34,913 nt of DNA from an uncultured Lachnospiraceae bacterium (lineage in GTDB: Bacteria > Bacillota > Clostridia > Lachnospirales > Lachnospiraceae), in contig CANDFH010000005.1 of assembly GCA_947383945.1 (NCBI GenBank), positions 86,791 to 121,703 on the forward strand, in the 5' to 3' direction. Positions 11,078 through 33,773 of the stretch are shown piece after piece. The stretch's first letter is position 1. Every line of letters starts with the position of its first letter. The position numbers were made by a program, and so were the translations under genes. The notes under the pieces were generated by a model. The model had not been told where the DNA came from and did no database searches. It saw only the letters and a program-made list of their open reading frames with translations.

Positions 11078-12106
11078 TCAGGTGCTGTCCCCCTCGATTA
11101 AAACTGGTTCCAGCAGGCATGACTCTGTCTTTCTTCCATTTTGCCGCGCCACAATATTTTCAAAAATCAAACTTCCCATCTTTTCAAAATCAACGGCGAC
11201 TGTCGTCAGATTCGGGCGCATCATACTGGCAATATGTATATTATCACTCCCGATACATGCGATATCTTCAGGAACTCTCAGCCCTGCGTCCTTCGCTGCC
11301 AAAATAGCTCCGTAAGCCACATAGTCGTTAATACAGCAGACTGCTCTTGGAAGTTTTTTTTGACCAAGCAAAGCCCGCATTGCCTCCTCGCCGTCTTTTT
11401 CATCATAAGACTGCCCATGAATCCATTCCTGGCGAATTTCAAGACCAGCTTCCCTTGCATACTGATGCAGGCAGTCATACATCAGGGCAGTCGGATACCT
11501 CCCGTAAGATCCGCTCGCGGCTCCTCCAAGAATTCCAACGGTTCGATAATCTTTTTTGAGCAAATGTTCCACAAGAAGCTTCACTTTCTTTTTCGTGTCT
11601 GTATGTACCCCGATACAGCCAAATTTTTCAGCCTGCTCGCAGCATAAAATACATGGAACACGACGGTTTAACGTATTGATGGCACTCGCGTACTCGGCGT
11701 CAATCTCAATCGCGTCAACGCCCCCTCCCATAATAACAGCAGCTTCCACGCGAACTTCATCAAAGACATTCAATATTCTCCGCTCCGTTCCAGTATCATT
11801 TTTTCCATTATATAAAATTGTCATATACCCATTGGCTGACGCATGTTTTTCAAATTCATAATATACATTAGAAAAATACTCGTTCCCAATATGCGGAATC
11901 ATAAATCCAATAATTCTTGTTCTGTTCCTCTGTAGCCCTCTGGCCATCGCATTCGGACGGAACCCATACTTGTCAATCACTTCTTGTATTCTCGCCCGCG
12001 TCTTTTCCGAAACAGATCCTTTGCCCGAAATTACTCTGGAAACCAGAGACGGGGACACCCCAACCTCAGCGGCAATATCATAGATTGTTATATTCTTCTC
12101 TTCCAC
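11078..12106 (-). CDS. LacI-family transcriptional regulator (GTG start)
   Basis: 342 aa. N-terminal HTH TIYDIAAEVGVSPSLVSRVISGKGSVSEKTRARIQEVIDKYGFRPNAMARGLQ followed by a periplasmic-binding-fold domain. GTG at 12104-12106, with AAGGA 7 nt upstream. Confidence 0.88.
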   Translation of the reverse strand: MEEKNITIYDIAAEVGVSPSLVSRVISGKGSVSEKTRARIQEVIDKYGFRPNAMARGLQRNRTRIIGFMIPHIGNEYFSNVYYEFEKHASANGYMTILYNGKNDTGTERRILNVFDEVRVEAAVIMGGGVDAIEIDAEYASAINTLNRRVPCILCCEQAEKFGCIGVHTDTKKKVKLLVEHLLKKDYRTVGILGGAASGSYGRYPTALMYDCLHQYAREAGLEIRQEWIHGQSYDEKDGEEAMRALLGQKKLPRAVCCINDYVAYGAILAAKDAGLRVPEDIACIGSDNIHIASMMRPNLTTVAVDFEKMGSLIFENIVARQNGRKTESCLLEPVLIEGDST

Positions 12107-12327: not shown

Positions 12328-13830
12328 TTACTCTGCGCCTTCTTCTCCCTCTTCTTCTGGAGGATTAACATAATCATCCTGCAAATCCTGGCTGTAGTCG
12401 TGGTTCTTGATATCCTCCATCATTGCATCCAGTGCCGACTTATATGCTTCAAGTGCAGAATCTGGAGTATTTGAACCATTTCCAATCGACGAAAATACTT
12501 CATTATTCAAGAGTGTGTTCAGATCTTCAAAACCCATCAGAGGGCTGATCATTACCTTAGGCATTAAGTCAAGGCAGATCTCAACTGCTTTTGCATCGGA
12601 AGCGGAAGCCTCGAAATTCGCCGCGATGGCATCTTCGTAATCTTCTTCATCCTCAAAAACCTGGAAGATCAAATCAATGATTGTCGCCACTTCCTCCGGC
12701 TTGTCAATACCATTTAACATCATCCATGGAGAGGACTCTTTCCCATAAGAAACATACTCTTTGCCGGAAGGTCCAAGCGGGAACGGCACAAAGCCCCACT
12801 CATCTTTCATACCGGTTTCTTCATCGTTCAAATAAGAAGTAATCCACCATGCCTCATAGCACATCATCGACTGACCATCGCGGAACGAGTAGATCTGTGC
12901 CTGCCAGTCTCCCAGCCAGCCGCCTAAGTGCGGAACATTCTGCATGAAATCTGCATAAGCTTCCAGAGCTTCCTTTGCCTCCTTTGTGTCGAGTGCAAGT
13001 TCAACGCCGGAATCTGTCTTCTTTACAGCATCTGCACCGTTTGACGCCATAAAGCTCCAGATAAAGTTCTCCCTCTGATTAAAACCGTGGATATCATACT
13101 CGCCGTCGCCGTCCAAGTCAACGTTACCTTTGATTGCGATATCCTTAAAGTTTTTCCAATTCCATTCGCCCTTGTCATAAAGTTCATACAAATCTGGCAG
13201 ATTGTACTGTTTAAAGAGCGTCTTGTTGTAGAAAATACCATACTGTACGTCCGGACCGGTTCTGCCCATCGCATAGACCTTGCCCTTGTAGGTGCTGGCA
13301 TTTGTCGCCGACTCCTGATACCAAGGCTTGCTAAAATCAATTACACCAAGGTCACTGATCGGGTAAGCGATACCGCCCTCAATCAATGATGGAAGCAGCT
13401 GATAACTTAAAATATAACCGACGTCGCAGACTGGGTCGCCCGCAAGCACGCTTGTTACATAAGCGCCGACATAATCACCGCCGACATTGACAAACTCGAT
13501 ATTGCAGTTGTAGTTATCTTCCACAAACTTGATCCTCTCGGCAAATGCTTTTGCAAACAAATCGCCGTCTGGATCTGGAGTCATCTCCCAGTAGCTTCCG
13601 ATTCTTACGGTTCTGCCGCCAAAATCATAAGCTGGCTCCGGCTCGTCGGTCGGTGTTGGATCGGTCGGATTATCGGAATCCGGCGTGTTTGTTGGAGTTT
13701 CTGGTGCGGAGGTCGGTTTTTCCTGATCTGCCGGAGTCGGAGTTGGGTCTTCTGCCGGATCTCCCCCGCAGCCTGCCATCGCCATTACCATAGATGCCGA
13801 CAGCGTCAATGCAAGTAACTTCTTTTTCAT
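12328..13830 (-). CDS. ABC transporter extracellular solute-binding lipoprotein (carbohydrate family)
   Basis: 500 aa. Lipoprotein signal MKKKLLALTLSASMVMAMAGC. A Pro/Thr-rich linker (PTPTPADQEKPTSAPETPTNTPDSDNPTDPTPTDEPEP) precedes a family-1-like binding domain. Strong AGGAGG RBS. It is the last gene of the operon. Confidence 0.8.
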   Translation of the reverse strand: MKKKLLALTLSASMVMAMAGCGGDPAEDPTPTPADQEKPTSAPETPTNTPDSDNPTDPTPTDEPEPAYDFGGRTVRIGSYWEMTPDPDGDLFAKAFAERIKFVEDNYNCNIEFVNVGGDYVGAYVTSVLAGDPVCDVGYILSYQLLPSLIEGGIAYPISDLGVIDFSKPWYQESATNASTYKGKVYAMGRTGPDVQYGIFYNKTLFKQYNLPDLYELYDKGEWNWKNFKDIAIKGNVDLDGDGEYDIHGFNQRENFIWSFMASNGADAVKKTDSGVELALDTKEAKEALEAYADFMQNVPHLGGWLGDWQAQIYSFRDGQSMMCYEAWWITSYLNDEETGMKDEWGFVPFPLGPSGKEYVSYGKESSPWMMLNGIDKPEEVATIIDLIFQVFEDEEDYEDAIAANFEASASDAKAVEICLDLMPKVMISPLMGFEDLNTLLNNEVFSSIGNGSNTPDSALEAYKSALDAMMEDIKNHDYSQDLQDDYVNPPEEEGEEGAE

Positions 13831-13905: not shown

Positions 13906-13934
13906 ATCTGGAAACGCAGTCTGCGTTTCCAGAT
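13906..13934 (-). promoter_or_regulatory. perfect 14+14 palindromic stem-loop in the permease-to-solute-binding-protein intergenic region
   Basis: ATCTGGAAACGCAG-T-CTGCGTTTCCAGAT. A T7 run follows on the plus strand only. On the coding (minus) strand it is a strong hairpin with no U-tract, sitting 5' of the solute-binding-protein RBS. Confidence 0.5.
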
Positions 13935-13944: not shown

Positions 13945-14991
13945 TTATCCGACAATACCAGAGCGCGCAATTCCCTCCACAAAATGTTTCTGGCAGGCCA
14001 GATACAAAATAACGAGAGGAAGGATTACAAGCAGCACGCCTGTGTTGTTCATCATTGAGGCAAAGCCCGGCGTCACAAAATTCATAGACCCGCCCATATC
14101 TTTGTACTGCGCTGCAATCGTGGTTGCAAGCCCGCTCAGCTTATTTGATAAAAGCGCCATCTTAGGCATATACATTCCAGTGTAGAACGAGTCGGTCCAC
14201 TGCCATACAAATCCAAACAAAAATACGGTTACCATCATCGGCACTGCAACCGGCATCATAATCTGCACAAATGTCCGAAGCTTGCCGCATCCGTCCACAA
14301 ACGCAGCCTCCTCAAGTTCCTTCGGTATTCCTTTAAAGAACTGGCGCAGCATATAGATATAAAGCCCATTCTTAAAACCGATACAGGTAATCGCCTGAAT
14401 CAGCACAGGTCCCGCCGTATTTAAAAGATTGATGCTCTCTCCTGTCACAGATTTCGCAATACCCAAAATATCAAAGAAACGAAAGTTCATATACATTGGG
14501 AGCATTAAAATCTGCGGCGGCACAATCAAGGTAAAGATCACACAGCCAAAAAATATATTTTTTCCAGGAAAACGGAATCTTGCAAAACCGTAAGCGGTCA
14601 GCATACATACAATCAGCTGTAAGAACGCCACTCCGCCTGAGATCACCGCGGTAAGCAGAAAACTCTTGCCGTACTCCAATCCCTTTAACACCTTTCTATA
14701 ATTGTCCAATGTGAAAGTTTTTGGCACGTACTTTACTGTCGCATCGTATAAATTTGATTCATCCATCAAGGATACGCTCAACTTTACAAAGACCGGATAC
14801 AAAATCACGTAACAGATTCCAAATACAATAACACCGCGCACAATGGAGAGTGCAATCCGCCCAAGTCTTGCCGGCGTAAGCTTCTTTTTTCTGCGTTCCA
14901 CCCCCGGCGCTGTCTTTTTTCTGGGAAGTAATTTCTGGAGCGAAAACTTTGCTCCATTGTTTAATTTCCTTACGTCCTCCAACTTTGCCAC
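13945..14991 (-). CDS. carbohydrate ABC transporter permease (MalG-type) with a basic N-terminal extension; non-ATG start
   Basis: 348 aa with multiple TM helices. The start codon is GTG (14989-14991), only 3 nt after the upstream TAG. Alternatively TTG 9 nt downstream, with an AGGGGG SD and an 8-nt spacer. No in-frame ATG precedes TM1. Confidence 0.8.
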   Translation of the reverse strand: MAKLEDVRKLNNGAKFSLQKLLPRKKTAPGVERRKKKLTPARLGRIALSIVRGVIVFGICYVILYPVFVKLSVSLMDESNLYDATVKYVPKTFTLDNYRKVLKGLEYGKSFLLTAVISGGVAFLQLIVCMLTAYGFARFRFPGKNIFFGCVIFTLIVPPQILMLPMYMNFRFFDILGIAKSVTGESINLLNTAGPVLIQAITCIGFKNGLYIYMLRQFFKGIPKELEEAAFVDGCGKLRTFVQIMMPVAVPMMVTVFLFGFVWQWTDSFYTGMYMPKMALLSNKLSGLATTIAAQYKDMGGSMNFVTPGFASMMNNTGVLLVILPLVILYLACQKHFVEGIARSGIVG

Positions 14992-14994: not shown

Positions 14995-15927
14995 CTAATC
15001 TGTATAGAATACCTTCCGGCTGATCAAACCGCCGACAACAGCGATAATTACAGCGATCAACACGAAGTAAATCCATGCCATTGCGGAACCGAACCCATAC
15101 TTTACATCGCTGAAGATCGTCTTTTTGATCAATGTCATCAGCTCGTTATCCGCGCTTGTGAACGAGTCGATAATTGTGTAAACGGAGTTCACAAGAATCA
15201 GCGGGCTGATCATCGGGAATGTGATCTTCCAGAAATTCTCCCACGCTGTAGCTCCTTCCATATTGGACGCCTCGTAAAGACTTGGAGAAATTCCCTGAAG
15301 TCCTGCAAGGAATACAAGAATCTGTACACCTGAAGCGATAACAATATCGTAAATTCCAAGCACTGCCTCCGATAAATAATTAACAAATGTTGCGGGCAGA
15401 TTTGTATAATTCATCAAAAATTTTGAAATATTAAACACTGTTGACGCATCATCTGCGGAAAGCATTCCCTCTGGTCCCAATGTCTGCTGCAATAAGTCCG
15501 ACGACTCAATACCAAGGATAATCCCCGAAGTCAGAATCACCGGAAAGAAGAAAATACTTCTCGCAATACCGCGTCCTTTAAATTTCTGGTTCAGCAGGTT
15601 CGCGGCAAAAAAGCTGAAAATCAAAATCAAAGGCACCTGGATAAACATATCCTTCACAGCGTTCAGCAATTTTAAATTAAAATCCGGATCGATCGTCAGC
15701 GCCCGTTTATAGTGTTCCAGTCCGCCTTCCGCCGCTTTTTGAAGTACATAACCTCCAGTTCCTACCTGCATATTGCTGAAACTGAACGCAATCGACTTAA
15801 AAAGCATCGGAAGAAACAACCCGATAAAACCGACCAGGAAAGGAATGATAAAGCAAAACCCGGCCACCGCTTCTTTACCTCTGAGCGTCATTTTCCGTTT
15901 TCCGTTCACTTTGCGCATTGCTTTCAT
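14995..15927 (-). CDS. sugar ABC transporter permease (MalF-type)
   Basis: 310 aa, 6 TM helices. EAA-loop region EASNMEGATAWENFWKITFPMISP. AGGAGAGG RBS. Confidence 0.85.
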   Translation of the reverse strand: MKAMRKVNGKRKMTLRGKEAVAGFCFIIPFLVGFIGLFLPMLFKSIAFSFSNMQVGTGGYVLQKAAEGGLEHYKRALTIDPDFNLKLLNAVKDMFIQVPLILIFSFFAANLLNQKFKGRGIARSIFFFPVILTSGIILGIESSDLLQQTLGPEGMLSADDASTVFNISKFLMNYTNLPATFVNYLSEAVLGIYDIVIASGVQILVFLAGLQGISPSLYEASNMEGATAWENFWKITFPMISPLILVNSVYTIIDSFTSADNELMTLIKKTIFSDVKYGFGSAMAWIYFVLIAVIIAVVGGLISRKVFYTD

Positions 15928-15931: not shown

Positions 15932-18487
15932 CTACCTCTCCTTCACAACAACAAAATCGCGCGCTTCCACCGTCTGACCGGCAGCCGACACCGCTTTTTT
16001 GTTATAGTTCACGATCACGCAGGTTCCATTCTCGTAAGTCGTCGCATACACTTTATCAGCCAGCCGTTCATGCTTTGTAATCCGCTGTCCCTGTACACTT
16101 CCCACCGCTGCATTCACTTTTTCGTAGGTCGAGATTGCTTTCTCCTTCCACGCTGCAAAATTGATGGAATAAAGGGAATCAAAATCTGTATCTTTCAACA
16201 GATGGTTATCGCCGTAAATCCATTCAAAAGACAGTCCGGCTCCACACTCAATACTCTGTAATACCGTCGTCTCAAAATCATCTGACATATTGAGATTTGG
16301 TCCTGCAAAATCTTTGTAACCATGCAGTACAATCGCATAAAATGGTATTGTTTCATCCAGGATTCTGCTGTTATTGCTGTCAAACGGCACCTCGATAATA
16401 TCAGAAAGCCATGAAAATGCGTAAGCGTTCGCATTATTGGCAAGTACATTCCCGCCCACCGCTGTATTCAGCAGCTCAATCGCTTCAGAATTATAGCCTG
16501 CCGCATGGCTTCGATCTGTGTACCTTGAGGACGCATAATCCGAAAACAGTTCTGATGCCAAAGTGTTTACCGCCACTCCGGTAAAATCATATTTCTTCAC
16601 TTTCTTTTCAAAATCCTTCGCCATCTTTACAACATAGTACGGGCTGATCAGATCAACGTCGCGCTTTACAAGCATTCCATTTGGAATCAGATATTCTCCG
16701 GTTCTTACCGTTGATTTGTCATAGTACTGCGGTGCGTGCGAACCGGATGCGTACCCGTCGCCTAACGCGCTTTTATATACATACTGCAGCTGTGCAGAAT
16801 GAAATACGGTAATCCCCTTTGCTGTCATATCGGACAAGAACTTCTTTAGAGATACCCCGGAAGCATTTAATTTGGAAAGTGCGGAAGCCGCCTTTGGAGC
16901 AGTTCCATGCAATCCGCCTTTTGCCCATCCCTGATACTGGATTTTCAGATTGCTGACCCCTGCACTTTGCAGTTCTTCCACAATTTTTTCCGCCTGCGCG
17001 TAAGTTGTCAATTCCTGCACTGCGTTATATTTAATGCCAAATATAGATTTTGTCTTTTCAATCGCACCGATTAAGTTTGCATAAAACGGCACCGCATTTC
17101 CCGCTGTCTGCTTTTTTAACGCCCCTTGGCTTTCCAAGTACGATTGATAAAAATGCGCCATCCCTGTATAGTTGGCCTCTTCACCGTGCAGGAAATTATA
17201 GCGCACACGGAACAGCCCTTCAAACTCTGCCGGGGAATACATCTGAAATGTCTGAGTTCCCACCACGTCGCCCAGCGAAATCTTCCCGTAACTTAAATAG
17301 GAAAAACCTGCGTACACATTATTGTAACTGTTTGTCTTTCCGGCATTGTCCGCCGTGATATCCGCCGCAGCCGCATTTTCCTCAATAATTGCAAACCACG
17401 CTTTATCGCCTGTTTTCAGACCGTACACCGGCATTCTCACAGTCACTGCCTGATCAATTTCCGACTTTGTTTTGCTGTTGAATGTATTGGTGATATCTCT
17501 GCCGTACACCGGAGCAAAATACGCGCTGTCCGTCTTTCCAGAATTCAGATAAATCAAAGCACCGCTTCCATCCGGCACAAAAAGATATCCTTCTTCCTCC
17601 GATCCGGCTGCCCCGAAAAACTCTAAAAGGTCAAGATCCACAAGGTAATAACCTTCTGTGTTGTACTCTACCTTTTTCGGATCAATCTGCGCAATCAAAC
17701 TCTCCCCATCCAATTTATACTCAAGCGTAACATTGAACCAAGGCTTTTCATTTGCTGACAGCACTCCGTTTTCCTCGTTGTCAAACGCCATATCTTCCGC
17801 CGTATAACCAACCTTTGTAAAATACCCTGTAATTTCTTCTTTTTTATAGTCCTTTACGCTGGACTGTAAAACATAGATATTGTGATCTTCAAAGGATGGG
17901 TACTGCTCGATATACTCCTGCCGCTCGGACTCCCTCATACTGGAAGCATCCAGATAGTTGTAAACTCGATCTGTCTTTTTCTTATCGCTTTTATCCATCT
18001 GCTCTGTAAATTGCAGATAGCGTTCCTCGCTGATTGCCTGCGGCAAAATATATTTATCTGCCAGCTCTCCAAGCTGATACAAGATACTTACTCCGTCTGA
18101 TTCATAAGTAATCTCAAATTGACCGTTTGCAATGCTGTCCGTATAATTATCCATCTCGGAAGACTGCGCGCTCTCGTTAAAATACCGGATGGAAAACTGG
18201 GAGCGCATCAGATCTTTGTGATAGGCACTTGCCACTGTATCGCTGTCAACCCCTTCTGGATTGCTGAACCATACATCACCGTTCTTTTTTACCCGAACTG
18301 CAACCGCGGTAGTCGCCTCGTCAATGTAGAGTTCCAACTCCGACGTTGAAGCCGCCAGTTTCATTCCGCTCGGTATGTCCTGCCCTTCCGCCGCGCAAAC
18401 CTTAAAATCCGGTTTACTGCCGCCCGAAAAGGCAATGCAGCCTGCCAGCAAAAACGCCGCGGCTCTTTTTATCCATTTCCTTTTCAT
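15932..18487 (-). CDS. large lipoprotein of unknown function (DUF5696-like, inferred from memory of similar clusters)
   Basis: 851 aa from the ATG at 18485-18487. Lipoprotein signal MKRKWIKRAAAFLLAGC (lipobox LAGC). No catalytic motif was recognisable by eye. It is translationally linked (4-nt gap) to the downstream permease genes. Confidence 0.55.
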   Translation of the reverse strand: MKRKWIKRAAAFLLAGCIAFSGGSKPDFKVCAAEGQDIPSGMKLAASTSELELYIDEATTAVAVRVKKNGDVWFSNPEGVDSDTVASAYHKDLMRSQFSIRYFNESAQSSEMDNYTDSIANGQFEITYESDGVSILYQLGELADKYILPQAISEERYLQFTEQMDKSDKKKTDRVYNYLDASSMRESERQEYIEQYPSFEDHNIYVLQSSVKDYKKEEITGYFTKVGYTAEDMAFDNEENGVLSANEKPWFNVTLEYKLDGESLIAQIDPKKVEYNTEGYYLVDLDLLEFFGAAGSEEEGYLFVPDGSGALIYLNSGKTDSAYFAPVYGRDITNTFNSKTKSEIDQAVTVRMPVYGLKTGDKAWFAIIEENAAAADITADNAGKTNSYNNVYAGFSYLSYGKISLGDVVGTQTFQMYSPAEFEGLFRVRYNFLHGEEANYTGMAHFYQSYLESQGALKKQTAGNAVPFYANLIGAIEKTKSIFGIKYNAVQELTTYAQAEKIVEELQSAGVSNLKIQYQGWAKGGLHGTAPKAASALSKLNASGVSLKKFLSDMTAKGITVFHSAQLQYVYKSALGDGYASGSHAPQYYDKSTVRTGEYLIPNGMLVKRDVDLISPYYVVKMAKDFEKKVKKYDFTGVAVNTLASELFSDYASSRYTDRSHAAGYNSEAIELLNTAVGGNVLANNANAYAFSWLSDIIEVPFDSNNSRILDETIPFYAIVLHGYKDFAGPNLNMSDDFETTVLQSIECGAGLSFEWIYGDNHLLKDTDFDSLYSINFAAWKEKAISTYEKVNAAVGSVQGQRITKHERLADKVYATTYENGTCVIVNYNKKAVSAAGQTVEARDFVVVKER

Positions 18488-18564
18488 ACTTCCTCGCATT
18501 CCGCCGCACAAACGGCTTTTTAATCAAAGGAATTCAGTTTCTCCTTTTTCCTGAAATCATTCTG

Positions 18565-19185
18565 CTACCGGAAACGAACTTCCTTGTAAATTGTCATCAC
18601 GAACGTCGCAATCTGCTGGATCACACTGAAAAAAAGCAGCCCGATAAAAAGCAGGATCGCCATACCGATAATTGTAAGGAGCGTTGTAAAAAGTGTTTTC
18701 TTCACAGAATACTGATGGGTTACCATCATCCCTGCCAAAAGCAGCGCGCCTGTCCAGAGATAGCTGATCGTTGTAAATACATAATAAAACGTTCCCTCTT
18801 CCGCTGTGATCATATGGCTCATTCCGATAAGCGGAAACTGAATCAGCCAGAGAGGAACCAGCGAATAGCCGGTAAAGATGATAATATCCCGCATTTTGCC
18901 TTCGCCGTCCATCAGCGAAGTTAAACACCAGTTGGACACACACCAGAGAATGCACATCAGACCTACCGATACAATATCAACCATAACATCAATGGTTTCC
19001 AGACGGTTCATATTAAACAAAAATGCCGTATTCTGCTTTTGCACCACGAGCATAAAGATTGTGAGCACAATAAAGGTAAAGGATGCGGCAACGGAACCGC
19101 GGTGCTCCTTCTTCAAATCCCAAAAACCGTCAAAAGGATGAAAAATAACATAGAAGCCGTATTTTAACGTCCTGAGATATTGCAT
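18565..19185 (-). CDS. Yip1-family integral membrane protein
   Basis: 206 aa. The N-terminus MQYLRTLKYGFYVIFHPFDGFWDLKKE followed by 5 hydrophobic helices is typical of bacterial YIP1-domain proteins. Its start overlaps the 3' end of the NHL gene by 22 nt. Confidence 0.65.
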   Translation of the reverse strand: MQYLRTLKYGFYVIFHPFDGFWDLKKEHRGSVAASFTFIVLTIFMLVVQKQNTAFLFNMNRLETIDVMVDIVSVGLMCILWCVSNWCLTSLMDGEGKMRDIIIFTGYSLVPLWLIQFPLIGMSHMITAEEGTFYYVFTTISYLWTGALLLAGMMVTHQYSVKKTLFTTLLTIIGMAILLFIGLLFFSVIQQIATFVMTIYKEVRFR

Positions 19186-20666
19186 TTTGCCTCACCTACC
19201 CATCTTTTAATTTTTTTGCCCACCACAAACACAAGAGCAATCACAACAACCCCGGCAATCAGCCCCATATATTTTCCGAAATTGTCCTGCATCAGATCTT
19301 TGCGGTAGAATTTAAATGCTTTCGTGTAATATTTTCGGCTGTTTCCAAGCTCGAAGTATTCCATCGCCTCTTTGTAACGGCCTTCCTTCAAGTACGTTTT
19401 TCCGATACCGATATACGCGACCTCGCTGTTGGCGTTGCGCAGAAGCACCTCCTGCCAAAGTTCATAAGAAAGTGCTTCATTCCCTTCATTATGAGCCTTT
19501 AAAGCTCCGAGCAGCGCCTGCCCGTACTCTGTAATTTCATAGGTTAAAATACTGCCCAACTGAGAATCAAGGACATAAATCTTTGCCTGATCCTCGCTTA
19601 ATGCCAGCGACACCGGATTTCTTACAAGTCCCGCGCGGCTGCCCTTTCCGCCAAAAACAAACAGTGAATTTCCGTCGTAATCATAACAGAAAACCTTGCC
19701 TCCGGCATTGTCGAGAATAAAATAACACCCGTAATCCGTCGATGCAATATCCGTGAAGGACGACCATGCCGCCTCATCGGTCGCGTTGTACAAATCTCCA
19801 ATAATAGCTGTATTTCCAAGACGTCTTAATACATCTGTGCCGGTTGGATTCAGCCTTCTTACGGCATCTGCCCCATTTAAGTGATCCTCGGCGGACAGAT
19901 TGCTGATTGTCGCATAGACAAAGTTGCTTTTATCCACAAAAATATTGCTGTATTCTGTTGGAATAATCGTCTCCATCCTCTGCTTCTGCGCGTCGGTAGA
20001 AAAATAATTCTTCCAGATATATTCAAACATGGATACCGAAACTTGTGTAGCCCCCATAAAACCCTGAAATTCTCCGTTTCGGTCAAACTCCACCAAACCC
20101 ATATTGATACCGTAAGCAATCACATAAATTCTTCCGGCTCCGTCCACAATAACTTTTGTAGGCACATAGTTCTGACTTTCTGTAATCAGCTCGGTTTCCG
20201 GTCTTCCAATCTGCCGGATATACTCTCTGTTCGGAGAGAATTCTACAACTCTTCCATTTCCAGAATCAGCGACATAAATATGCCCTTCCTCCGTCACAAA
20301 CACGCCCTGCGGGCTTTTTAAACTGTCCTCAGCTCCATCTGCTGTAAAAGAGGATAATTCCCACAACATTGCCCCTGAAGTATCAAGCGCGACAATTCTG
20401 CTGTTCTCCATATCCGCCACATACAAGGTGTCATGTTTTAAAAACAAGTCCTGCGGATTTTTTAACTTTGTACCCGACTGTATATATGACAATTCTTCTG
20501 CATACAAATACGCAGGAGGCTGCAGCACATCCTCGCCCCACCAGTCGTAACTGTAAGTGTCGTAAGGCATCGTATCCGCAGAGACTTCGCTTGCAGGGAA
20601 AAGCAGGCTTCCCGCCGCTGCAAGCACACAGAGCAGTTTTCCGAACTTCTTCTTCGAATTCTTCAT
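19164..20666 (-). CDS. secreted NHL-repeat beta-propeller protein with C-terminal TM anchor
   Basis: Internal ATG at 20664-20666 (M32 of the tracked ORF) gives 500 aa. Signal peptide MKNSKKKFGKLLCVLAAAGSLLFPASEVSA. At least 5 NHL-type blades (LYVADMENSRIVALD, IYVADSGNGRVVEF, IYVIAYGINMGLVEF, YFILDNAGGKVFCYD, IYVLDSQLGSILTYE). A TPR-like helical segment, then a C-terminal TM helix YMGLIAGVVVIALVFVVG. Confidence 0.7.
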   Translation of the reverse strand: MKNSKKKFGKLLCVLAAAGSLLFPASEVSADTMPYDTYSYDWWGEDVLQPPAYLYAEELSYIQSGTKLKNPQDLFLKHDTLYVADMENSRIVALDTSGAMLWELSSFTADGAEDSLKSPQGVFVTEEGHIYVADSGNGRVVEFSPNREYIRQIGRPETELITESQNYVPTKVIVDGAGRIYVIAYGINMGLVEFDRNGEFQGFMGATQVSVSMFEYIWKNYFSTDAQKQRMETIIPTEYSNIFVDKSNFVYATISNLSAEDHLNGADAVRRLNPTGTDVLRRLGNTAIIGDLYNATDEAAWSSFTDIASTDYGCYFILDNAGGKVFCYDYDGNSLFVFGGKGSRAGLVRNPVSLALSEDQAKIYVLDSQLGSILTYEITEYGQALLGALKAHNEGNEALSYELWQEVLLRNANSEVAYIGIGKTYLKEGRYKEAMEYFELGNSRKYYTKAFKFYRKDLMQDNFGKYMGLIAGVVVIALVFVVGKKIKRWVGEAKCNISGR

Positions 20667-20682
20667 TGTTTGCTCCCCCCTT

Positions 20683-21561
20683 CTATTCCTTGATACCGGA
20701 AGATGCCATTGTCTCGATAATATTACTCTGGCTGATAATAAAGATCGCAATCGGCACAACCATCATAATTACCGTTACTGCCGCAGTTGCTCCAGCTCTG
20801 GAAATACCTCCTGCCGCAATCTGGGATAATGCGTAAGGCAGAGTCTTTAGTTCTTCGCTGTAAATGTAATTTGCGCCCTGCGCATTCCACAAATCCTGGA
20901 AGGAAAAGATAATCAGCGTCAGCCATGCAGATTTTACCTGCGGCATTGCAATTCGGAAAAATGTGTGAATCTCGGTCGCACCGTCAATTCTTGCCGCCTC
21001 CAAAAGAGTATCCGGTATCTGCTCCATAAACTGTTTCATCAGGAACAGACCGAGCGGTTTTGCAATCGCAGGAACAACGATCGCTACATAATGGTCAAGC
21101 CATCCGATCTTGCTCATAATCAGATAGTTTGGAATCGCTGTGACCTGACCGGAGAACATCAAGGCTGTAACAATAATGCCAAAAATCAGGTTGCGTCCCG
21201 GGAACTTATGTTTTGAGAGTGCGTAAGCGCACATACTGGCAATAATCAAATGACCTGCCGTTCCGGTTACCGTAATAAATACGGTGTTAAATATGTATCT
21301 TGAAAACGGCACCCATGACTCGGACATCAGCACAAACACATCATGGTAGTTTTTTCCCGTAGGATTTCTCACAAACAACCGCGGCGGGAACACAAACAAT
21401 TCCTCAAGTGGTTTTAAGGAGTTGCTGATGGAAAGTACAAGCGGCACAACCATAAATGCACCCATTAAGATAAGAAGGAACATATTCAGGAAATTACCTG
21501 CCGCGGAATGGTTCGGTTTTGCCCGTTTCTTTTTCTTAAAAACTGCTGAAACTGCACTCAT
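20683..21561 (-). CDS. carbohydrate ABC transporter permease (MalG-type)
   Basis: 292 aa, multi-TM. The ATG at 21559-21561 lies 1 nt after the upstream TAA, indicating translational coupling. Confidence 0.85.
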   Translation of the reverse strand: MSAVSAVFKKKKRAKPNHSAAGNFLNMFLLILMGAFMVVPLVLSISNSLKPLEELFVFPPRLFVRNPTGKNYHDVFVLMSESWVPFSRYIFNTVFITVTGTAGHLIIASMCAYALSKHKFPGRNLIFGIIVTALMFSGQVTAIPNYLIMSKIGWLDHYVAIVVPAIAKPLGLFLMKQFMEQIPDTLLEAARIDGATEIHTFFRIAMPQVKSAWLTLIIFSFQDLWNAQGANYIYSEELKTLPYALSQIAAGGISRAGATAAVTVIMMVVPIAIFIISQSNIIETMASSGIKE

Positions 21562-21562: not shown

Positions 21563-22507
21563 TTATTGACCCACCTTTCGTAACAGGAATTGTACCAGCT
21601 TGTTGCAGAGTATCATAACGATAAACAAGAGCGTGGCGATCGCGGAGGCGTAACCCATCTCAAAACGGATTGAGCCGTAATCGACAAGATGTGAGACAAC
21701 CGTGTGCGCCGCGTAGCTGACGCTTGGGAAACCTGCGAGAGCCGCCAACTGGTCATGGATGGCAAACGACGAAGTAATTGTCATAACCGCACCAAACATC
21801 AGCTGCGGCTTCATGGAAGGAAGTGTGATATACCAAAGTTCCTGAAAACGGTTTTTGATACCATCCATATAACCTGCCTCGTACAAAGTGCGATCCACGT
21901 TCTGCAGACCTGCAATAAAGGACAAAAACCCTGTTCCCATACTCATCCACAAAACAACGACAATCAAAATCGGCTGAATGTACGTCGCATCCTCAAACCA
22001 CAGAATTGGTGAATAAATCGCGCCAAGCTTCATCAGCCAGCCGTTTGCAAAACCGTAAGAGTCACTGGAAAAAATAAACTTCCAGATAAAATACGCCTGC
22101 CCTGAAATTGTTGGGGCATAAAAGATCAGCGTCATAATCGCGCGCAGCACCGGTCTTTTGATCTCATTGATCATCCATGCGATAATCAGCGCCATAAAAT
22201 AGCCGATCGGTCCGGTAACAACTGCAAACAGGAATGTATTCTTTACTGCCGTCAAAAATACATCGTCCGAAAAAAACAAATTTATATAGTTCTGCCAGCC
22301 GATAAACCGCGGCGATTCGAGTACATTGTAGTAGGTGAAGCTCAATCCCATCGAAGTCACGACCGGAACCAGATAAAATACCGTAAAAATAATGCAGTAT
22401 GGAGCAATAAACAAAAACGATATTTTCGATTTTTTCATCTGCTTCCAGGTTGCTTTCCACCTTCTTGCAATATCTGCTTTCAGAACATGAATCAAACCCT
22501 TCTCCAT
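21563..22507 (-). CDS. sugar ABC transporter permease (MalF-type)
   Basis: 314 aa, multi-TM. ATG at 22505-22507. GAGGT RBS. Confidence 0.85.
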   Translation of the reverse strand: MEKGLIHVLKADIARRWKATWKQMKKSKISFLFIAPYCIIFTVFYLVPVVTSMGLSFTYYNVLESPRFIGWQNYINLFFSDDVFLTAVKNTFLFAVVTGPIGYFMALIIAWMINEIKRPVLRAIMTLIFYAPTISGQAYFIWKFIFSSDSYGFANGWLMKLGAIYSPILWFEDATYIQPILIVVVLWMSMGTGFLSFIAGLQNVDRTLYEAGYMDGIKNRFQELWYITLPSMKPQLMFGAVMTITSSFAIHDQLAALAGFPSVSYAAHTVVSHLVDYGSIRFEMGYASAIATLLFIVMILCNKLVQFLLRKVGQ

Positions 22508-22618: not shown

Positions 22619-25501
22619 TTATTCCAGACCAAACTCAATACGCTTGTTTGTAATCTCATTATTGATTGTCTTAACATAATCCTCAAGCGTTTCTCTCGGA
22701 TCCTCCTTGGTGTTATACACTGCATAGAATGCATTTTTCACATGGCGCTCTGTAAAATATCCGCCTGGAATCTCCGGCACGACCTTCACCCATTCCATCT
22801 GAGCTTTCAGCTGTTTTAAATCCCTGCTGGTCCACGGCAGATTTTCCAGCGCCGCTGTATTTGCCGTCGCGACACGTCCCGCAACACCCAGGATATTTTC
22901 AACTTCAATGCCGTAGGAAGTCTGCGTCTCTTCGCTCATCCACCATTTTAAGAATTCCCATGCTCCTTCTTTGCGCTTGGATGTATCCAGAATAATAACC
23001 GCCGACTGCCCTGCTAAAACAGAGTGATCAACATTGCCCGATTCATCTTCGTAGCCCGGAACTAACGTAAAGCCCCAAAGCCCCTTGATCTCCGGTGCAA
23101 ATACCGAAAGGTAGCTGTACTGCGTATAATCTGCGATTGCCAGCGGCATCTCGCCTGTTCGGAAACGGTTTGCAAAATCATAAGTAACCGGCATACGGTA
23201 ATCAACATAATTACTCGTCCACTGCGTGAAGGCCTGCACCGCTTCCTCTGTATCCAACCCGCTCGCCTTACCGTCCGGCGAATAATAAGAACCGCCATGC
23301 TGGTACAAACACATACCATAAGAAGAATAATCAGGACTGATACCAATGTTCATATTATTTTTCTGTATCACTGCCAGACACTCATAGAACTGATCCCAAG
23401 TCCGCGGCACGGTTAAACCAAGCTCTTTTAAAATATCCGCCCGATAAAACAGCATCGGGAAAGAGGAGGTCTGCGGCAGTGCATAAACGCCGTCGTTCAG
23501 CCGGAACATATCGAGCGCATTGTCAAAAAATCTGCTGGAAACTTCGTCAAAGTCATCAAACTGCGTCAAATCTGCCGCCGCTTTGCGGAGCGCGTAATTG
23601 ACCGGCTCTTTACTTCCAACTCCCAGCGCAACGTCAGGTCCCTGACCGGCAAGTGTTGCGGACAGCAGGATATCGCGGTTTACAAGTTTTACATTGACTG
23701 GGATTCCCTTTGCTTCCACAAAGTAATTGTCCACAAGATTTTTTAAAACGGTCGCCTGGTCACGCCCGGAACCGCTCGCACTTGCTGCCGCCGATGCGTC
23801 TGCAAGCATCCATACTTCAACAGTGCCGCTGCCGTACACATTACCGATGCTTTCATAATCTTCTGTAAAGCTTGCGATAAACGCACGCCACTCATGCAGC
23901 ACCTTCTGCCAGAATCCTGCCTTTGCTTTTGGCAGTTTTGCATCCGCCTGCTGCAAGAGCAGATAATCAATCTGAAGCGGCTGTTCCTTCATCGAGAGCG
24001 TCCAGGAACCAAGCGAAATAATATTATCTTTAAATGCCGACCACTGTTTCGCGATGGTTGATGGCTTCTTGGACATATTTCCAAGCTGGATAATCAGGTT
24101 GTCAAGCGCTACAGACTCACTTCCGCTGGAACCTTTCGCGTAAGCCTTCACCCGCGCGGATAAGTTCTCAATAATCTGGTGCTGTTCTTTTAAGATTGCA
24201 AGAGCCTCTGGCGTCTTGATGTCAAGCTGATAGTCTCTGAGAGAATCCGGCGAGGAGCCAATTACCATAAGCAGCTGCCTGTATGCCTGGTTCAGTTCAA
24301 AAATACTGTTGTCCGCCTCGTTTAGAATCTGAGCCATCTCCTCGCCCAGCGCAACTTCCAGAGTCAAGGTATGAGTACCTGCCGTCAAATAAAAACGATA
24401 ACTTTCCTCATCACTGCCAAACGTTGTGACATCCCAGTTGTTATCATAGTAAAATCTTAATTCTGCCGCCTCCTGAAATGGAAGTTCCCCATCAATGGAA
24501 AGCGAACGTACCACAGTTACACCCTGCTTTATACTCTGCTTGTATTTCGCTGCAATCTCATAAAAACCATCCTCTGGAACCGACACTTCCCATGTAATCC
24601 ACTGCCCTGTCTGGTTCCAGTTGTTTCCGCCGATGCTGTTCATTCGAATCTTGGACGGATGATACGGCTCAGTGAGCGGCGAAGTTCTGTCGTTCACCGG
24701 GTAGAGCGTGGAATCGGACTTATATACTGCATCCTCGCCCTGAATTTTAACAGCCGCCGCCAGAGCGACATCCTTTGCTCCTTTCGCCGCTGCCGCCGCG
24801 TAATAATCCGCATAGCTTGGAATTTCCGGCTGTTTTGACAAAGTAATCGCGCCGACTGCCATCGGCTCTTTGATTGAGGTTAAAGAAATGGTGTTTGTTC
24901 CTTTATTAAAATAAAAATAGTATGCGTCCGACTCATATCCCGAACTATCCTCGCACCATGCGCTGCGCCAAATTCTCTCCTCGACCTGCGTCGGTCGGAT
25001 ATCATTGCCGCGCGCGTCCATTCGAACCTCCGTCTCATTTTTCCAGACCCTTGTAAACTCCAGAGACTGCGCCCCGTCAAACGGAAGTTCTCCATTGATA
25101 CGAATCTCCCGCTCAATTGTATTGCCCTTGCCTTCCGTCGGATAATAGTCAAGTTTTACCTGGTACAGTCCCGCTTCCGAAACATCAAACTCCCAGACAA
25201 TCTCACCTTCCTCCGCGGTCAGTGCAACGCTTCCGGCAAAACCTTCATAATTATCCTGACGCGAAAATCCTGCGTCCGCCGTTTTGTAATCGCCGCCTGC
25301 AATCCTTATTTCGCCTGCTGGATATCCTGCATCCGAATGGTCTGCCAAGTAATCCCGGTAGCTTTTTGTATCGTAAACGATCGACAAAAGCTCATCTTCC
25401 TGCTCCGTTTCACCCGCAGCCTGCATAGGTCGTGGGAACGCAAGTACCGCAAACGCTGCCGCCAGCAACCCTGCTTTCAACTTTCTTTTCATTGCCATCA
25501 T
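22619..25501 (-). CDS. giant extracellular solute-binding protein with N-terminal tandem beta-sandwich (carbohydrate-binding-like) modules
   Basis: About 960 aa from the ATG cluster at 25490-25501 (MMAMKRK...). AAGGGGG SD. Signal peptide MKRKLKAGLLAAAFAVLAFPRPMQAAG. Two internal repeats (INGELPFDGAQSLEFTRVW / IDGELPFQEAAELRFYYDNNW). The C-terminal ~430 aa resemble a family-1 sugar-binding domain. The N-terminal 17 aa of the ORF track were rejected. Confidence 0.7.
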   Translation of the reverse strand: MMAMKRKLKAGLLAAAFAVLAFPRPMQAAGETEQEDELLSIVYDTKSYRDYLADHSDAGYPAGEIRIAGGDYKTADAGFSRQDNYEGFAGSVALTAEEGEIVWEFDVSEAGLYQVKLDYYPTEGKGNTIEREIRINGELPFDGAQSLEFTRVWKNETEVRMDARGNDIRPTQVEERIWRSAWCEDSSGYESDAYYFYFNKGTNTISLTSIKEPMAVGAITLSKQPEIPSYADYYAAAAAKGAKDVALAAAVKIQGEDAVYKSDSTLYPVNDRTSPLTEPYHPSKIRMNSIGGNNWNQTGQWITWEVSVPEDGFYEIAAKYKQSIKQGVTVVRSLSIDGELPFQEAAELRFYYDNNWDVTTFGSDEESYRFYLTAGTHTLTLEVALGEEMAQILNEADNSIFELNQAYRQLLMVIGSSPDSLRDYQLDIKTPEALAILKEQHQIIENLSARVKAYAKGSSGSESVALDNLIIQLGNMSKKPSTIAKQWSAFKDNIISLGSWTLSMKEQPLQIDYLLLQQADAKLPKAKAGFWQKVLHEWRAFIASFTEDYESIGNVYGSGTVEVWMLADASAAASASGSGRDQATVLKNLVDNYFVEAKGIPVNVKLVNRDILLSATLAGQGPDVALGVGSKEPVNYALRKAAADLTQFDDFDEVSSRFFDNALDMFRLNDGVYALPQTSSFPMLFYRADILKELGLTVPRTWDQFYECLAVIQKNNMNIGISPDYSSYGMCLYQHGGSYYSPDGKASGLDTEEAVQAFTQWTSNYVDYRMPVTYDFANRFRTGEMPLAIADYTQYSYLSVFAPEIKGLWGFTLVPGYEDESGNVDHSVLAGQSAVIILDTSKRKEGAWEFLKWWMSEETQTSYGIEVENILGVAGRVATANTAALENLPWTSRDLKQLKAQMEWVKVVPEIPGGYFTERHVKNAFYAVYNTKEDPRETLEDYVKTINNEITNKRIEFGLE

Positions 25502-25521
25502 CAACCCCCTTCGGCATTCTT

Positions 25522-27585
25522 TTATCGTTTCAGCGTCCATTCCTCCTGCCACTCAATCTTCATATCCGTTCCGTCAAAATCGATTGGAAGCCAGACATAT
25601 CTGGAGTCTGAGAGATTATCGCTGTTCCAGCGGTCGCCCATATAGACAATCGTACCGTCATCGGTCTGAAAAATACAGGTGCTTTGGGAATCAAACGTCG
25701 TCCGCTTATCGTCCCCAATACAAGGATCCCCCTTATCTTCCCACTCTCCGAAAATCTCATCTGCAACCCAGTATCTCGCCTGGTTCGGCGCCCATCCGGT
25801 CGCGCCGGAAGTCATCATATAATACCTGCCGTCTTTTTTTATAATCGCCGGCGCCTCTCTCTGCGCACCCGGATACAGACGAATAAAATCTTTGCCGTAC
25901 ACTGCATTTTCTGGTTCTGTGCAGAGGTAATCATAAGCATCGTTCAGTTTTGATATGTAGATGGTTAAGTTTTCCTCGCTGGAATAGATAATGTACGCCG
26001 TGCCGTCATCATCGATAAAGAGGTTCATATCGCGCGCCATACCCTTGCTTTGCGGATACATATCTTCCTGATCTTCCGGGCAAGTGTTAAGCCGGTAGCG
26101 GTCAACAAAACGGAATGGTCCATAAGGGGAATCACTGACCGCAAGCCCCGCGCTGGCCGCAGCATAATTTGCGCTGCTCGTTTCCGTCGGACCATCGGCG
26201 TGAAACCATATAAGATATTGCTTTGTCTTTTCATTGTAAATCATCTTAGGACGTTCAATTACAGAAGTTGAATCATTGATGCAGCGATATACATTATCGA
26301 GCTGTTCTTTGGTATATCCCGCATAGAGTTCTTTAAAATATTCGTCCGTGTCAAGCTCCTCACGGCTTGTCACATTGCGCATTACAACACCTTCAAATTT
26401 CCAGTTGTAAAGATCGTCGGAACTGTAGGCGCAAATCCCGCCGCGGTAGCCTTTTGTTTTATCCTCTCCAACCCACCACCACTTCTCTGACGATTCGCCG
26501 GTCTCTTTATCGGTCACCGTAAGTTTCTGCACCTGACCGCCGTGCGCCTGTATTTTATTTCCATCCTGATCCTGCCAAATCTTACCTGGTCGAAATGAAC
26601 TATATATCATTTTCTTTTCCAACCCTTCAAATGATTTTTTTAAATTTTCATACGCTGTTCTAATTTCCTGCTCTGAAGCGTTTTCTTTAAGAGCGACCGC
26701 CTCCGTTCTCGACTCGATATATCCGCCGACAGTCGCATCGCGGTATTCTTTTAGTTCCTCGTCGGACAACTCGGTTGCCGAGAGGAGCATCGCGAGCATC
26801 TCCCCATTGTACTCTGGCACTGCCCTCACAATAATATAGCTTATCTCGGGGTTTTTCATCGCATCTTTTCCACGTTTTGAATTATAGATAAATAAATTTA
26901 ACTCTCCGTCCTCTACATCCAATTCAAACGTGCTTTTTATATCTTGAAATTTCAGAATTTTCTGCTCTTCTACAACCTTTTTCCCCTCCGCTTGAATATC
27001 GATGGTTCTCGCGGAAAACGGATTATAAAAACCACATGTCACCTCATAAGTTCCTGCTGGAACTTCAAAGCTGTATCGGTAGCCTGTATCATCATTGTAC
27101 TCGACATTATCGGCAAGCACCCACTTTGCATCTTTGGGACTTTCCCCTTCTGCATCTCCCTCCGCAACCATATAGTCCTGCGGTATATAGCCCCAGATTC
27201 TGCCGCTGTTCTCGTCCGAACCATACTCTTGATCCGGCTTTGTCTGAAACAATCCAAGACCTGTTGAAACGGTATCTGCACGGGAGGCGCAGTTTACAAA
27301 ATAGAGAAGAAAATCATTTTCAAACAAAACTTCTTTGGTCGGGAGAGCCTTGACTTCACCAAGTGGTTTCCCCTGCTGACTTTCTGTCGGCGTTGCTTCT
27401 GGTGAGGGTTCTTCCGGCTTGTTTGTAGGATTTGTCTTTTCATCTTGAACAGCATCCCCCGTTCCCTGCGTTTCTATTGTAGGTTTTGGATTTTCCACAT
27501 CCTCACCCTTCCCGCAGCCTGTCAGCGCAAATACAGCAGCGGCAAGAAATGATAATGACTTTCTGTAGCTCCTCGCTTTCCACAT
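25522..27585 (-). CDS. GH43-like (5-bladed beta-propeller) glycoside hydrolase lipoprotein, first gene of the operon
   Basis: 687 aa. Lipoprotein signal MWKARSYRKSLSFLAAAVFALTGC. The C-terminal ~330 aa carry GH43-type motifs ARDMNLFIDDDGTAYIIYSS and EAPAIIKKDGRYYMMTSG (putative acid Glu). GAGGTGA RBS. Confidence 0.7.
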   Translation of the reverse strand: MWKARSYRKSLSFLAAAVFALTGCGKGEDVENPKPTIETQGTGDAVQDEKTNPTNKPEEPSPEATPTESQQGKPLGEVKALPTKEVLFENDFLLYFVNCASRADTVSTGLGLFQTKPDQEYGSDENSGRIWGYIPQDYMVAEGDAEGESPKDAKWVLADNVEYNDDTGYRYSFEVPAGTYEVTCGFYNPFSARTIDIQAEGKKVVEEQKILKFQDIKSTFELDVEDGELNLFIYNSKRGKDAMKNPEISYIIVRAVPEYNGEMLAMLLSATELSDEELKEYRDATVGGYIESRTEAVALKENASEQEIRTAYENLKKSFEGLEKKMIYSSFRPGKIWQDQDGNKIQAHGGQVQKLTVTDKETGESSEKWWWVGEDKTKGYRGGICAYSSDDLYNWKFEGVVMRNVTSREELDTDEYFKELYAGYTKEQLDNVYRCINDSTSVIERPKMIYNEKTKQYLIWFHADGPTETSSANYAAASAGLAVSDSPYGPFRFVDRYRLNTCPEDQEDMYPQSKGMARDMNLFIDDDGTAYIIYSSEENLTIYISKLNDAYDYLCTEPENAVYGKDFIRLYPGAQREAPAIIKKDGRYYMMTSGATGWAPNQARYWVADEIFGEWEDKGDPCIGDDKRTTFDSQSTCIFQTDDGTIVYMGDRWNSDNLSDSRYVWLPIDFDGTDMKIEWQEEWTLKR

Positions 27586-27664: not shown

Positions 27665-27693
27665 AGTATATACCAAAACTATTGTATTGTCAA
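27665..27693 (-). promoter_or_regulatory. SigA-type promoter (-35 TTGACA, 17 nt, -10 TATACT) for the GH43 / solute-binding-protein / ABC operon
   Basis: Minus-strand read: TTGACA(27688-27693)-17nt-TATACT(27665-27670), about 75 nt upstream of the GH43 ATG. Confidence 0.6.
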
Positions 27694-27932: not shown

Positions 27933-27963
27933 AGAAAAAAGAATCCTGCTTCACAGGATTCTT
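27933..27963 (-). terminator. canonical rho-independent terminator
   Basis: Minus read: AAGAATCCTG-TGAAG-CAGGATTCTT followed by TTTTTTCTGT. 10-bp stem, 5-nt loop, U6. Confidence 0.7.
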
Positions 27964-33747: not shown

Positions 33748-33773
33748 AAGCTAGATATAATATCTATACACAA

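Follow-up and report, generated by a model that had tools for sequence, protein, structure and literature searches.

Gram-positive loci for CUT1-type (MalFGK-like) sugar importers, a class of ATP-binding cassette (ABC) transporters, combine a solute-binding protein (SBP) with two permeases carrying EAA loops and a LacI- or AraC-type regulator, and lack a local ATPase gene; a surface endo-enzyme and enzymes without signal peptide complete them. The loci analysed here share these traits. The one from which the analysis started lies in a stretch of 34,913 nucleotides from an uncultured Lachnospiraceae bacterium (assembly GCA_947383945.1, contig CANDFH010000005.1, positions 86,791 to 121,703 of the forward strand), which is called the window throughout. 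However, it differs from the described loci in having two importers in a fixed arrangement, an SBP of 977 amino acids (aa) with about 550 extra residues, and three constant non-transporter proteins encoded between the importers: an NHL β-propeller protein, a membrane protein of the Yip1 family and a lipoprotein with DUF5696, together called the trio below.

For two of the three, described relatives exist. YknW, a polytopic Yip1-family protein of Bacillus, modulates the assembly of the YknXYZ ABC transporter (PMC4887032). There as here, a Yip1-family protein is encoded alongside an ABC transporter, a likeness drawn from family and description and not from sequence comparison. YknWXYZ itself belongs to the MacB-type exporters and includes a membrane fusion protein, whereas the partners in our locus are importers, and the Yip1 protein is here paired, sometimes fused, with an NHL propeller. 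DUF5696 is like glycoside hydrolase (GH) family 129 in fold and by profile homology, GH129 being represented by the α-N-acetylgalactosaminidase NagBb (5wzn) and the 3,6-anhydro-D-galactosidase ZgGH129 (5opq); GH101, GH36, GH31 and GH13 are more distant relatives. The two families have in common a GW motif after strand β2, an Arg (R659, corresponding to R458) and Pro and His positions, but they are only about 12–14% identical, and in the alignments the nucleophile Asp and acid/base Glu of GH129 do not fall on conserved residues of DUF5696. The latter also has a helical insert (residues ~154–240), has lost the segment with the stacking Trp, and its gene always lies between permease genes. NagBb has no signal peptide (PMC7232152), whereas DUF5696 is extracytoplasmic and membrane-tethered. 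Two further parallels are analogies only. The SusC/SusD cores of polysaccharide utilisation loci (PULs) in Bacteroidota likewise show a constant core, interchangeable enzymes and paralogous copies within a genome, but their proteins are unrelated, without homology to ours, and so is their energy coupling, by TonB-dependent outer-membrane transport. The CD98hc/rBAT heavy chains of heteromeric amino-acid transporters, a hypothetical functional parallel, are eukaryotic, GH13-like rather than GH129-like, and partners of LeuT-fold transporters.

The core of the locus consists of eight genes, given here in the order of transcription (matches are to Pfam families).

22619..25552, minus strand: core gene 1, big SBP, 977 aa counted from a GTG, with a likely Met start at ~25501
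21563..22507, minus strand: core gene 2, permA1, MalF-type permease with EAA loop; BPD_transp_1 at E 3.5e-10
20683..21561, minus strand: core gene 3, permA2, MalG-type permease with EAA loop EAARIDGATEIHTFFRIAMP; BPD_transp_1 at E 2.2e-14
19164..20666, minus strand: core gene 4, NHL protein, 500 aa, propeller plus C-terminal transmembrane (TM) helix
18565..19185, minus strand: core gene 5, Yip1 protein, 206 aa, polytopic membrane protein
15932..18487, minus strand: core gene 6, DUF5696 lipoprotein, 851 aa, in an open reading frame (ORF) of 15932–18511, with the ATG at 18487 giving MKRKWIKR
14995..15927, minus strand: core gene 7, permB1, MalF-type permease with EAA loop; BPD_transp_1 at 26.4 bits, exactly at the cut-off
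13945..14991, minus strand: core gene 8, permB2, MalG-type permease with EAA loop and a long basic N-terminus; BPD_transp_1 at E 4.5e-13

An earlier note on this DNA, made from the letters alone, had described the trio as a translationally coupled unit, and its coordinates and junctions were exact in the ORF check: the NHL and Yip1 genes overlap by 22 nt (19164–19185), Yip1 and DUF5696 are 77 bp apart, and 4 bp separate the end of DUF5696 (15932) from the start of permB1 (15927). The NHL ORF extends over 19164–20759, with a possible TTG start at 20759; the ATG at 20666 was taken as the start because the N-terminus that it gives, MKNSKKK, agrees with those of the homologues.

Scanning a DUF5696 alignment against one genome per GTDB species returned at least 596 DUF5696-encoding stretches. 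Gene context was taken from the best 80 of these loci, with 10-kb flanks, and the window proteins were searched against all of their ORFs. NHL and Yip1 genes were found directly upstream of DUF5696 in all 77 loci with enough upstream flank. In the 69 loci with full flanks, the eight genes occurred without exception in identical order and on one strand (69/69), and each of the 11 incomplete loci ends at a contig edge. The eight genes are inherited as one block in fixed order. Hosts comprise Lachnospiraceae (including metagenome-assembled genomes of Butyrivibrio, Roseburia and Acetatifactor), Anaerotaenia, Defluviitaleaceae and Oscillospiraceae, as well as many Paenibacillus and Cohnella and some Bacillaceae. 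The earlier note had stated that DUF5696 and Yip1 recur in Firmicutes beside sugar permeases without ATPase, and had proposed co-occurrence of the three genes as a check. The recurrence is stricter than it supposed, and far above chance expectation. Its view of the trio as the unit has to be replaced by that of an eight-gene cassette, in which the big SBP, permA1 and permA2 lie upstream and permB1 and permB2 downstream, and the NHL protein, which it took for an addition, is a constant member.

Identities to the window proteins, measured per locus, correlated between components (r 0.92–0.97, shared phylogeny not being controlled for), which agrees, with that reservation, with inheritance as a block. 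The permeases permA1 and permA2 were the most conserved (77% and 76% identity to the window in Lachnospiraceae-like loci, 60% and 58% in the others), and DUF5696 was the least conserved core protein (45% and 34%, respectively); the NHL protein was more conserved than DUF5696. Four genomes, those of Paenibacillus gallinarum, Paenibacillus sp. J45TS6, Cohnella luojiensis and Paenibacillus harenae, each carry two paralogous cassettes (the locus pairs L042/L078, L044/L080, L047/L053 and L065/L074). The two copies have different neighbour enzymes, which indicates that the whole block was duplicated and retargeted. We propose, with a probability of about one half, that the trio is a constant accessory module of a twin sugar ABC importer, the whole serving as a reusable glycan-uptake core in Firmicutes. 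DUF5696, NHL and Yip1 are counted as machinery because they are constant between loci, whereas the cargo-specific enzymes change.

The 851-aa protein matched DUF5696 (PF18952) with E 6.9e-185 and 616.5 bits (cut-off 25.6), over positions 2–612 of the 612 in the model. It carries a lipobox, LAGC, at residues 14–17. Homologues differ at the N-terminus, where some have only a signal peptide, others a lipobox and others again a TM anchor, so that the predicted lipoprotein status is lineage-specific; the lipobox, read earlier as a mark of this protein, holds for the window and its nearest relatives but not as a general trait. In plain sequence searches no relative emerged: phmmer against the PDB gave no match at E≤1, and NCBIfam nothing usable. 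To this extent the earlier statement that the trio lacks any recognisable catalytic motif was correct, but it missed a hidden GH129-type fold. A confident AlphaFold2 model (pLDDT 86.8, pTM 0.82), for which 38 homologues were used, has the three domains of GH129, namely an N-terminal β-sandwich, which carries the helical insert, a (β/α)8 barrel at ~468–770 and a C-terminal β-sandwich. Foldseek against the PDB placed GH129 at the top (5opq/8rzk at E 3.3e-32, NagBb entries 5wz* at ~1e-24, TMt 0.68–0.71), with GH101, GH36 and GH31 ranking after it.

Profile comparisons, which are independent of the model, agreed with this assignment. The profile of the 38 homologues reached 5opq in the PDB at E 0.045 only, and the best sub-threshold matches were GH129 entries, in colinear pieces. 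Against a GH129 reference alignment, A3, made of 40 full-length GH129-like proteins from a representative search, hhalign gave 98.8% probability (E 1.2e-16, 490 columns), and 99.2% (E 7.5e-20) when 118 DUF5696 sequences were used. We also observed, on a low-coverage contig of ENA ERZ504733 (locus L081, 94–1800), a frameshifted bifidobacterial NagBb-like GH129 gene whose fragments have precomputed Pfam matches to both Glyco_hydro_101 and DUF5696; therefore the Pfam DUF5696 model already reaches GH129 sequences. DUF5696 is thus, by its predicted fold and by profile–profile homology, a remote homologue of GH129. Since the homology shows only from profile to profile, direct sequence similarity of the kind expected within the family is lacking, and since the alignments show no conserved counterparts of the canonical catalytic residues, DUF5696 is better called a sister family of GH129 than a member. 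The earlier note had held that its reading would suffer if the protein confidently matched a GH family already characterised; the fold match is confident, but as no conserved residues align with the Asp and Glu, the protein stays outside GH129 itself.

We take Asp435 as the nucleophile and Glu478 as the acid/base of NagBb, in keeping with the conservation of their motifs. Positions were counted from Trp398, the stacking platform of NagBb (PMC8106489), in a partial NagBb-like sequence reconstructed from the frameshifted bifidobacterial gene. Counted in this way, the two residues land on a YLD and an SSEE motif, near-invariant in A3 as D439 and E482. In DUF5696, the nucleophile aligned to the variable position 646 in one hhalign run and to a gap in the other; D650, four residues further on and present in 115/118 sequences, pairs with the GH129 DEC motif instead. 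The acid/base aligned to position 684, where the 118 sequences have no conserved Glu (D46/S21/N18/E18/Q4). This residue is N in the window protein and E in loci L001 and L002, whose proteins are 78–80% identical to it; for a catalytic residue, a switch between E and N at so little divergence is unusual. The position of the Trp398 platform falls in a deletion of DUF5696. Shared with GH129 are W521 after β2 (GH129 W328), R659 (R458), P701, P715 and H722. The fully conserved E747 (118/118) was considered as a catalytic candidate and put aside, as it lies at the end of helix α7 before β8, on the N-terminal face of the barrel. The conserved residues of the DUF5696 core are unchanged across all the cassette types defined below by their neighbouring enzymes. 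Positions 684 and 658, by contrast, track cassette type, with S/T/A and F/H, respectively, in the mannan type, while the xylan type has E/N/D and the GH53 type D, a pattern confounded by phylogeny.

The NHL protein matched the Pfam families NHL (E 6.7e-11, 42.1 bits, cut-off 20) and SGL (E 9.7e-11, 42.2 bits, cut-off 26.3, over 103 of 246 model positions), with weak matches to TPR, and the Yip1 protein matched Yip1 (PF04893; E 5.4e-13, 49.6 bits, cut-off 28.6, model positions 2–171 of 173). With DUF5696, the three families named in the earlier note were all above cut-off. Its placement of the three proteins outside the cytoplasm or in the membrane also agrees with what was found: beside the lipobox of DUF5696, the NHL protein has a signal-like N-terminal helix and a TM helix near its C-terminus (464–482), and Yip1 is polytopic, with four hydrophobic segments by a simple hydropathy scan and a fifth by eye. 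In its AlphaFold2 model (pLDDT 81), the NHL protein is a six-bladed propeller followed by a TPR-like helical bundle and a long C-terminal helix, the end of which is the TM segment, so that repeat matches and fold both indicate a six-bladed NHL propeller. The best Foldseek matches were the ligand-binding NHL domains of TRIM71/Lin41/Brat/Thin and designed propellers (E 5e-18 and TMt 0.75–0.80 against the NHL domains of TRIM71 and Brat), and no lactonase or lyase was among the top 50. Conserved residues in blades 1–3, read by eye, mostly fit the repeated ADxxNxRI-type NHL motif. Many invariant residues (RRLNPTGTDVLRRLG, YIWKNYFS) lie at ~186–291, in or around a highly conserved insertion modelled with pLDDT ~50–70, which makes this insertion a candidate surface for binding a partner.

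In six genomes, two of them complete Paenibacillus chromosomes, NHL and Yip1 form one ORF, which encodes the propeller, the TM helix, a short basic linker and Yip1; the junction was read in L075. A 716-aa protein from the protein database (P0184), with both Pfam domains, is also such a fusion. Overlaps of similar size between separate NHL and Yip1 genes are visible at other loci, as judged from stop-to-stop ORF coordinates and not from start codons. Given the fusion, the C-terminal tail of the NHL protein and the N-terminus of Yip1 would share the cytoplasmic side, and the two proteins would cooperate. The pair could have been imagined as a tether for unanchored secreted proteins; this was ruled out, as the big SBP is itself anchored by a TM-like N-terminus, and a lipobox or TM anchor of their own is found in many DUF5696 homologues.

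The two permease pairs flanking the trio are paralogous (permA1 and permB1, 26% identity, E 4e-10; permA2 and permB2, 26% identity, E 2e-19). The EAA-loop motif was matched in permA2, permB1 and permB2 and is readable by eye in permA1 (LYEAGYMDGIKNRFQELWYITLP). These paralogous MalF/MalG-type pairs with EAA loops therefore encode two complete membrane channels. SBP_bac_1 was matched by two proteins, the big SBP and a 500-aa SBP lipoprotein, so each importer has the two BPD_transp_1 permeases with EAA loops and the family-1 SBP of the CUT1 type. In the big SBP, the match (E 3.5e-27, residues 602–877) belongs to a domain that occupies only the last ~375 residues; it is preceded by an N-terminal hydrophobic anchor and an additional region of ~550 aa that resembles carbohydrate-binding modules (CBMs), with a weak Golvesin_C match. 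Most homologues lack a lipobox and have a TM-like N-terminus. Within residues ~50–590 we noticed two similar segments, …YQVKLDYYP…REIRINGELPF… and …YEIAAKYKQ…RSLSIDGELPF…, with weak Golvesin_C and SusE/F-like matches only; they are probably tandem CBMs of an undescribed type. In Lachnospiraceae, the gene for the second SBP lies 3' of permB2; Paenibacillus has a weaker SBP match 5' of the big SBP (phmmer E ~1e-30 to 1e-50), which is a similarity and not an established orthologue. No match to ABC_tran was obtained among the scanned ORFs of ≥150 aa in the 34.9-kb window, a negative that does not extend systematically to unannotated ORFs in the flanks of related loci. CUT1-type importers in Firmicutes commonly use a shared ATPase encoded elsewhere, and because of this the missing local ATPase is compatible with function.

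Flanking genes of the 80 loci were clustered and representatives scanned. In the xylan type, a TM-anchored GH10 follows directly 3' in 13 loci, usually succeeded by a GH43 β-xylosidase without signal peptide, and an AraC-type response regulator lies upstream in 20 loci. The mannan type has a GH26 without signal peptide 3' in 9 loci, or a GH2 β-mannosidase in 3, and LacI regulators. In the galactan type, found in Lachnospiraceae, 3 loci have a GH53 without signal peptide upstream, and in 5 a GH53 encoded downstream is a lipoprotein. GH127, GH9, GH16 plus GH3, and GH106 occur as single cases. In the window and in 9 other Lachnospiraceae loci, the gene immediately 5' of the big SBP encodes a GH43 lipoprotein, these being full-length homologues. 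Gaps read directly were 5 bp (GH26, L036) and ~50 bp (GH10, L028), and LacI homologues flank 26 related loci. Enzymes without signal peptide are presumably intracellular. A single substrate for the cassette was sought in the neighbouring enzymes and ruled out, since the neighbours differ by lineage. For the window itself, the nearest solved relatives of the GH43 protein are GH43 exo-β-1,3-galactanases (6eug at E 2.7e-67, 3vsf, 7bys, 5flw), and this similarity points to type II arabinogalactan (β-1,3-galactan) as the cargo. Judged by gene content, the layout is that of a Gram-positive PUL, with the eight-gene cassette as its putative invariant transport core.

The other features of the locus are the following, from upstream to downstream in the direction of transcription.

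27938–27964, minus strand: terminator-like hairpin, a consensus match only, which precedes the promoter match and parts it from the genes further upstream
27665..27693, minus strand: best sigma-70-like promoter match, TTGACA-17-TATACT (11/12), 5' of the GH43 gene, from a consensus scan only
25522..27585, minus strand: GH43 lipoprotein, 687 aa, lipobox LTGC; Pfam Glyco_hydro_43 at E 3.6e-16
13906..13934, no strand assigned: stem-loop with a perfect stem of 13 bp and a loop of 3 nt; the gap that holds it, between permB2 and the second SBP gene, is 114 bp long
12328..13830, minus strand: second SBP lipoprotein, 500 aa, lipobox MAGC; SBP_bac_1 at E 2.3e-18
11078..12106, minus strand: LacI-family regulator (Pfam LacI/Peripla_BP), at the end of the locus

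Transcription on the minus strand would thus run from GH43 through the big SBP, permA1/A2, NHL, Yip1, DUF5696 and permB1/B2 to the SBP lipoprotein and LacI, and the promoter match is the likely start of this operon. The stem-loop has its T-run on the non-transcribed strand and none on the transcribed (minus) strand, and may be, rather than a terminator, an element of mRNA stability or processing through which SBP and permease are expressed in a set ratio.

The first 9.9 kb of the window hold ribosomal protein genes (S10/spc operon) and abut the locus. The S10 ORF there (9327–9878, minus strand, 183 aa) has an N-terminal extension of 84 residues before the S10 domain, probably an artefact of choosing the first GTG. 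A gene for a SAM-dependent methyltransferase (10168–11049) lies between the ribosomal operon and the LacI gene. Upstream of the cassette, a GH94 phosphorylase and an adjoining APH-family kinase are encoded at 29895–32288 and 32573–33610, both on the minus strand. Among solved structures, the GH94 protein is very near an N,N'-diacetylchitobiose phosphorylase (8bou, 1208 bits; 1v7v, 2.4e-167), N-acetylhexosamine 1-kinases belong to the APH family, and the two genes look like a separate chitobiose/GlcNAc unit. Between GH94 and the cassette, a 477-aa ORF (28356–29789, minus strand) had no match in Pfam, NCBIfam or the PDB (best E 0.13–0.6); the terminator-like hairpin at 27938–27964 comes after it. 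At the right-hand end, G+C content falls to 0.31–0.385 over 32001–34000, versus ~0.45 elsewhere in the window, and the ORF at 34318–34908 (plus strand) had no Pfam match.

How might the accessory module work? The NHL propeller, anchored by its own TM helix and by Yip1, would form a membrane scaffold, which we liken to the Yip1 protein YknW assembling the YknXYZ transporter. Both importers and the ectodomain of DUF5696 would be held in place by this scaffold. As a subunit of the machinery and not a cargo-specific enzyme, DUF5696 would more probably be a binding protein whose active site has degenerated than a hydrolase of the classical kind; its role would be the binding, and possibly the trimming, of oligosaccharides freed by the lineage-specific surface endo-enzyme. 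The oligosaccharides would then be handed to the CBM-bearing big SBP and to the small SBP for import, with ATP hydrolysis by the ATPase encoded elsewhere. Surface capture or processing of glycans that feeds the importers, as the earlier note had suggested, remains the best general reading. Several points weigh against our proposal. The 80 loci are those most similar to the query, a sample that excludes more distant DUF5696 members; membership of the operon is read from spacing and a consensus promoter scan only; and the NHL-Yip1 fusion is the sole direct evidence of physical contact between components. Moreover, three acids that follow barrel strands β4, β6 and β7, D650 (115/118), D711 (110/118) and D737 (101/118), are conserved on or near the C-terminal face of the barrel and may form a relocated catalytic pair, in which case DUF5696 would possibly be an active enzyme. 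The tracking of cassette type by position 684 would also fit a substrate contact, a correlation confounded by phylogeny. An extension of our proposal, in which the eight proteins would make up a single Gram-positive 'utilisome', with NHL-Yip1 bridging the two importers in the membrane and with a GH129-derived pseudo-glycosidase and the giant CBM-bearing SBP as their cap, seems to us rather unlikely.

The conserved acids, together with the GH129-type fold, the remote homology and the shared W521 and R659, are also what gives weight to the main rival explanation, which we regard as possible but doubtful: DUF5696 would be an active surface glycosidase of a new GH family distant from GH129/GH101, using D650 with D711 or D737 to remove α-linked decorations (arabinose, galactose, glucuronate) or to size oligosaccharides, while NHL-Yip1 merely tethers or regulates. 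The associated hemicelluloses are all known to bear α-linked side chains, and the change of residue 684 from one cassette type to another is what one would expect of a specificity determinant. However, in the alignments both catalytic residues of GH129 lack a conserved counterpart, the window protein has N at the acid/base position where ~80%-identical relatives have E, and DUF5696 stays constant in cassettes for chemically different glycans, whereas genuine enzymes get swapped. It is also the least conserved core protein overall. We consider it distinctly improbable that there are just two ordinary, independent importers, with the trio carried along for an unrelated envelope function such as cell-wall polymer remodelling or adhesion. 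Each permease pair does have its own SBP and looks complete, and the conserved core of DUF5696, constant across cargo, could have some other ligand; but the trio always stands between the permease pairs (69/69), in lineages of widely differing identity, with tight or overlapping gaps and with component identities that track each other. Fixed order and tight spacing are hard to explain without functional coupling. Very unlikely indeed is that the NHL protein is the catalytic component, an SMP-30/gluconolactonase-type lactonase or a propeller lyase to which DUF5696 and Yip1 would be accessory. The SGL match, database names such as 'SMP-30/gluconolactonase/LRE family protein' and its higher conservation relative to DUF5696 would suggest such a role, but the match covers only part of the profile, the 50 best Foldseek matches are mainly NHL binding domains and designed propellers, and the NHL repeat motif mostly explains the conserved residues of blades 1–3.

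ABC-based glycan loci are already well known. A literature search, thin on subscription journals, found no mention of DUF5696/PF18952, nor of Yip1 or NHL proteins with sugar ABC importers, nor any account of the cassette arrangement; what is new is the fixed dual-importer cassette, its three undescribed accessory proteins and the placement of a DUF as a remote relative of GH129. Lachnospiraceae, Paenibacillus and Cohnella are major degraders of plant glycans in guts, rumen and soil, and their uptake systems are usually described as an SBP and two permeases, so that a cassette of such rigidity suggests an unrecognised layer of transport machinery. The module proposed here would give a function to DUF5696 and to bacterial Yip1, domains of unassigned role, and a marker for predicting glycan-utilisation loci in Firmicutes. 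It would also provide an example of a transporter that took over a glycosidase fold as one of its subunits or, if not, a new GH family. If the eight proteins did form a single utilisome, it would be a generic platform for the import of long oligosaccharides and the functional counterpart in Firmicutes of the SusCD core, and a mere swap of neighbour enzymes would direct it to xylan, mannan, galactan or arabinogalactan.

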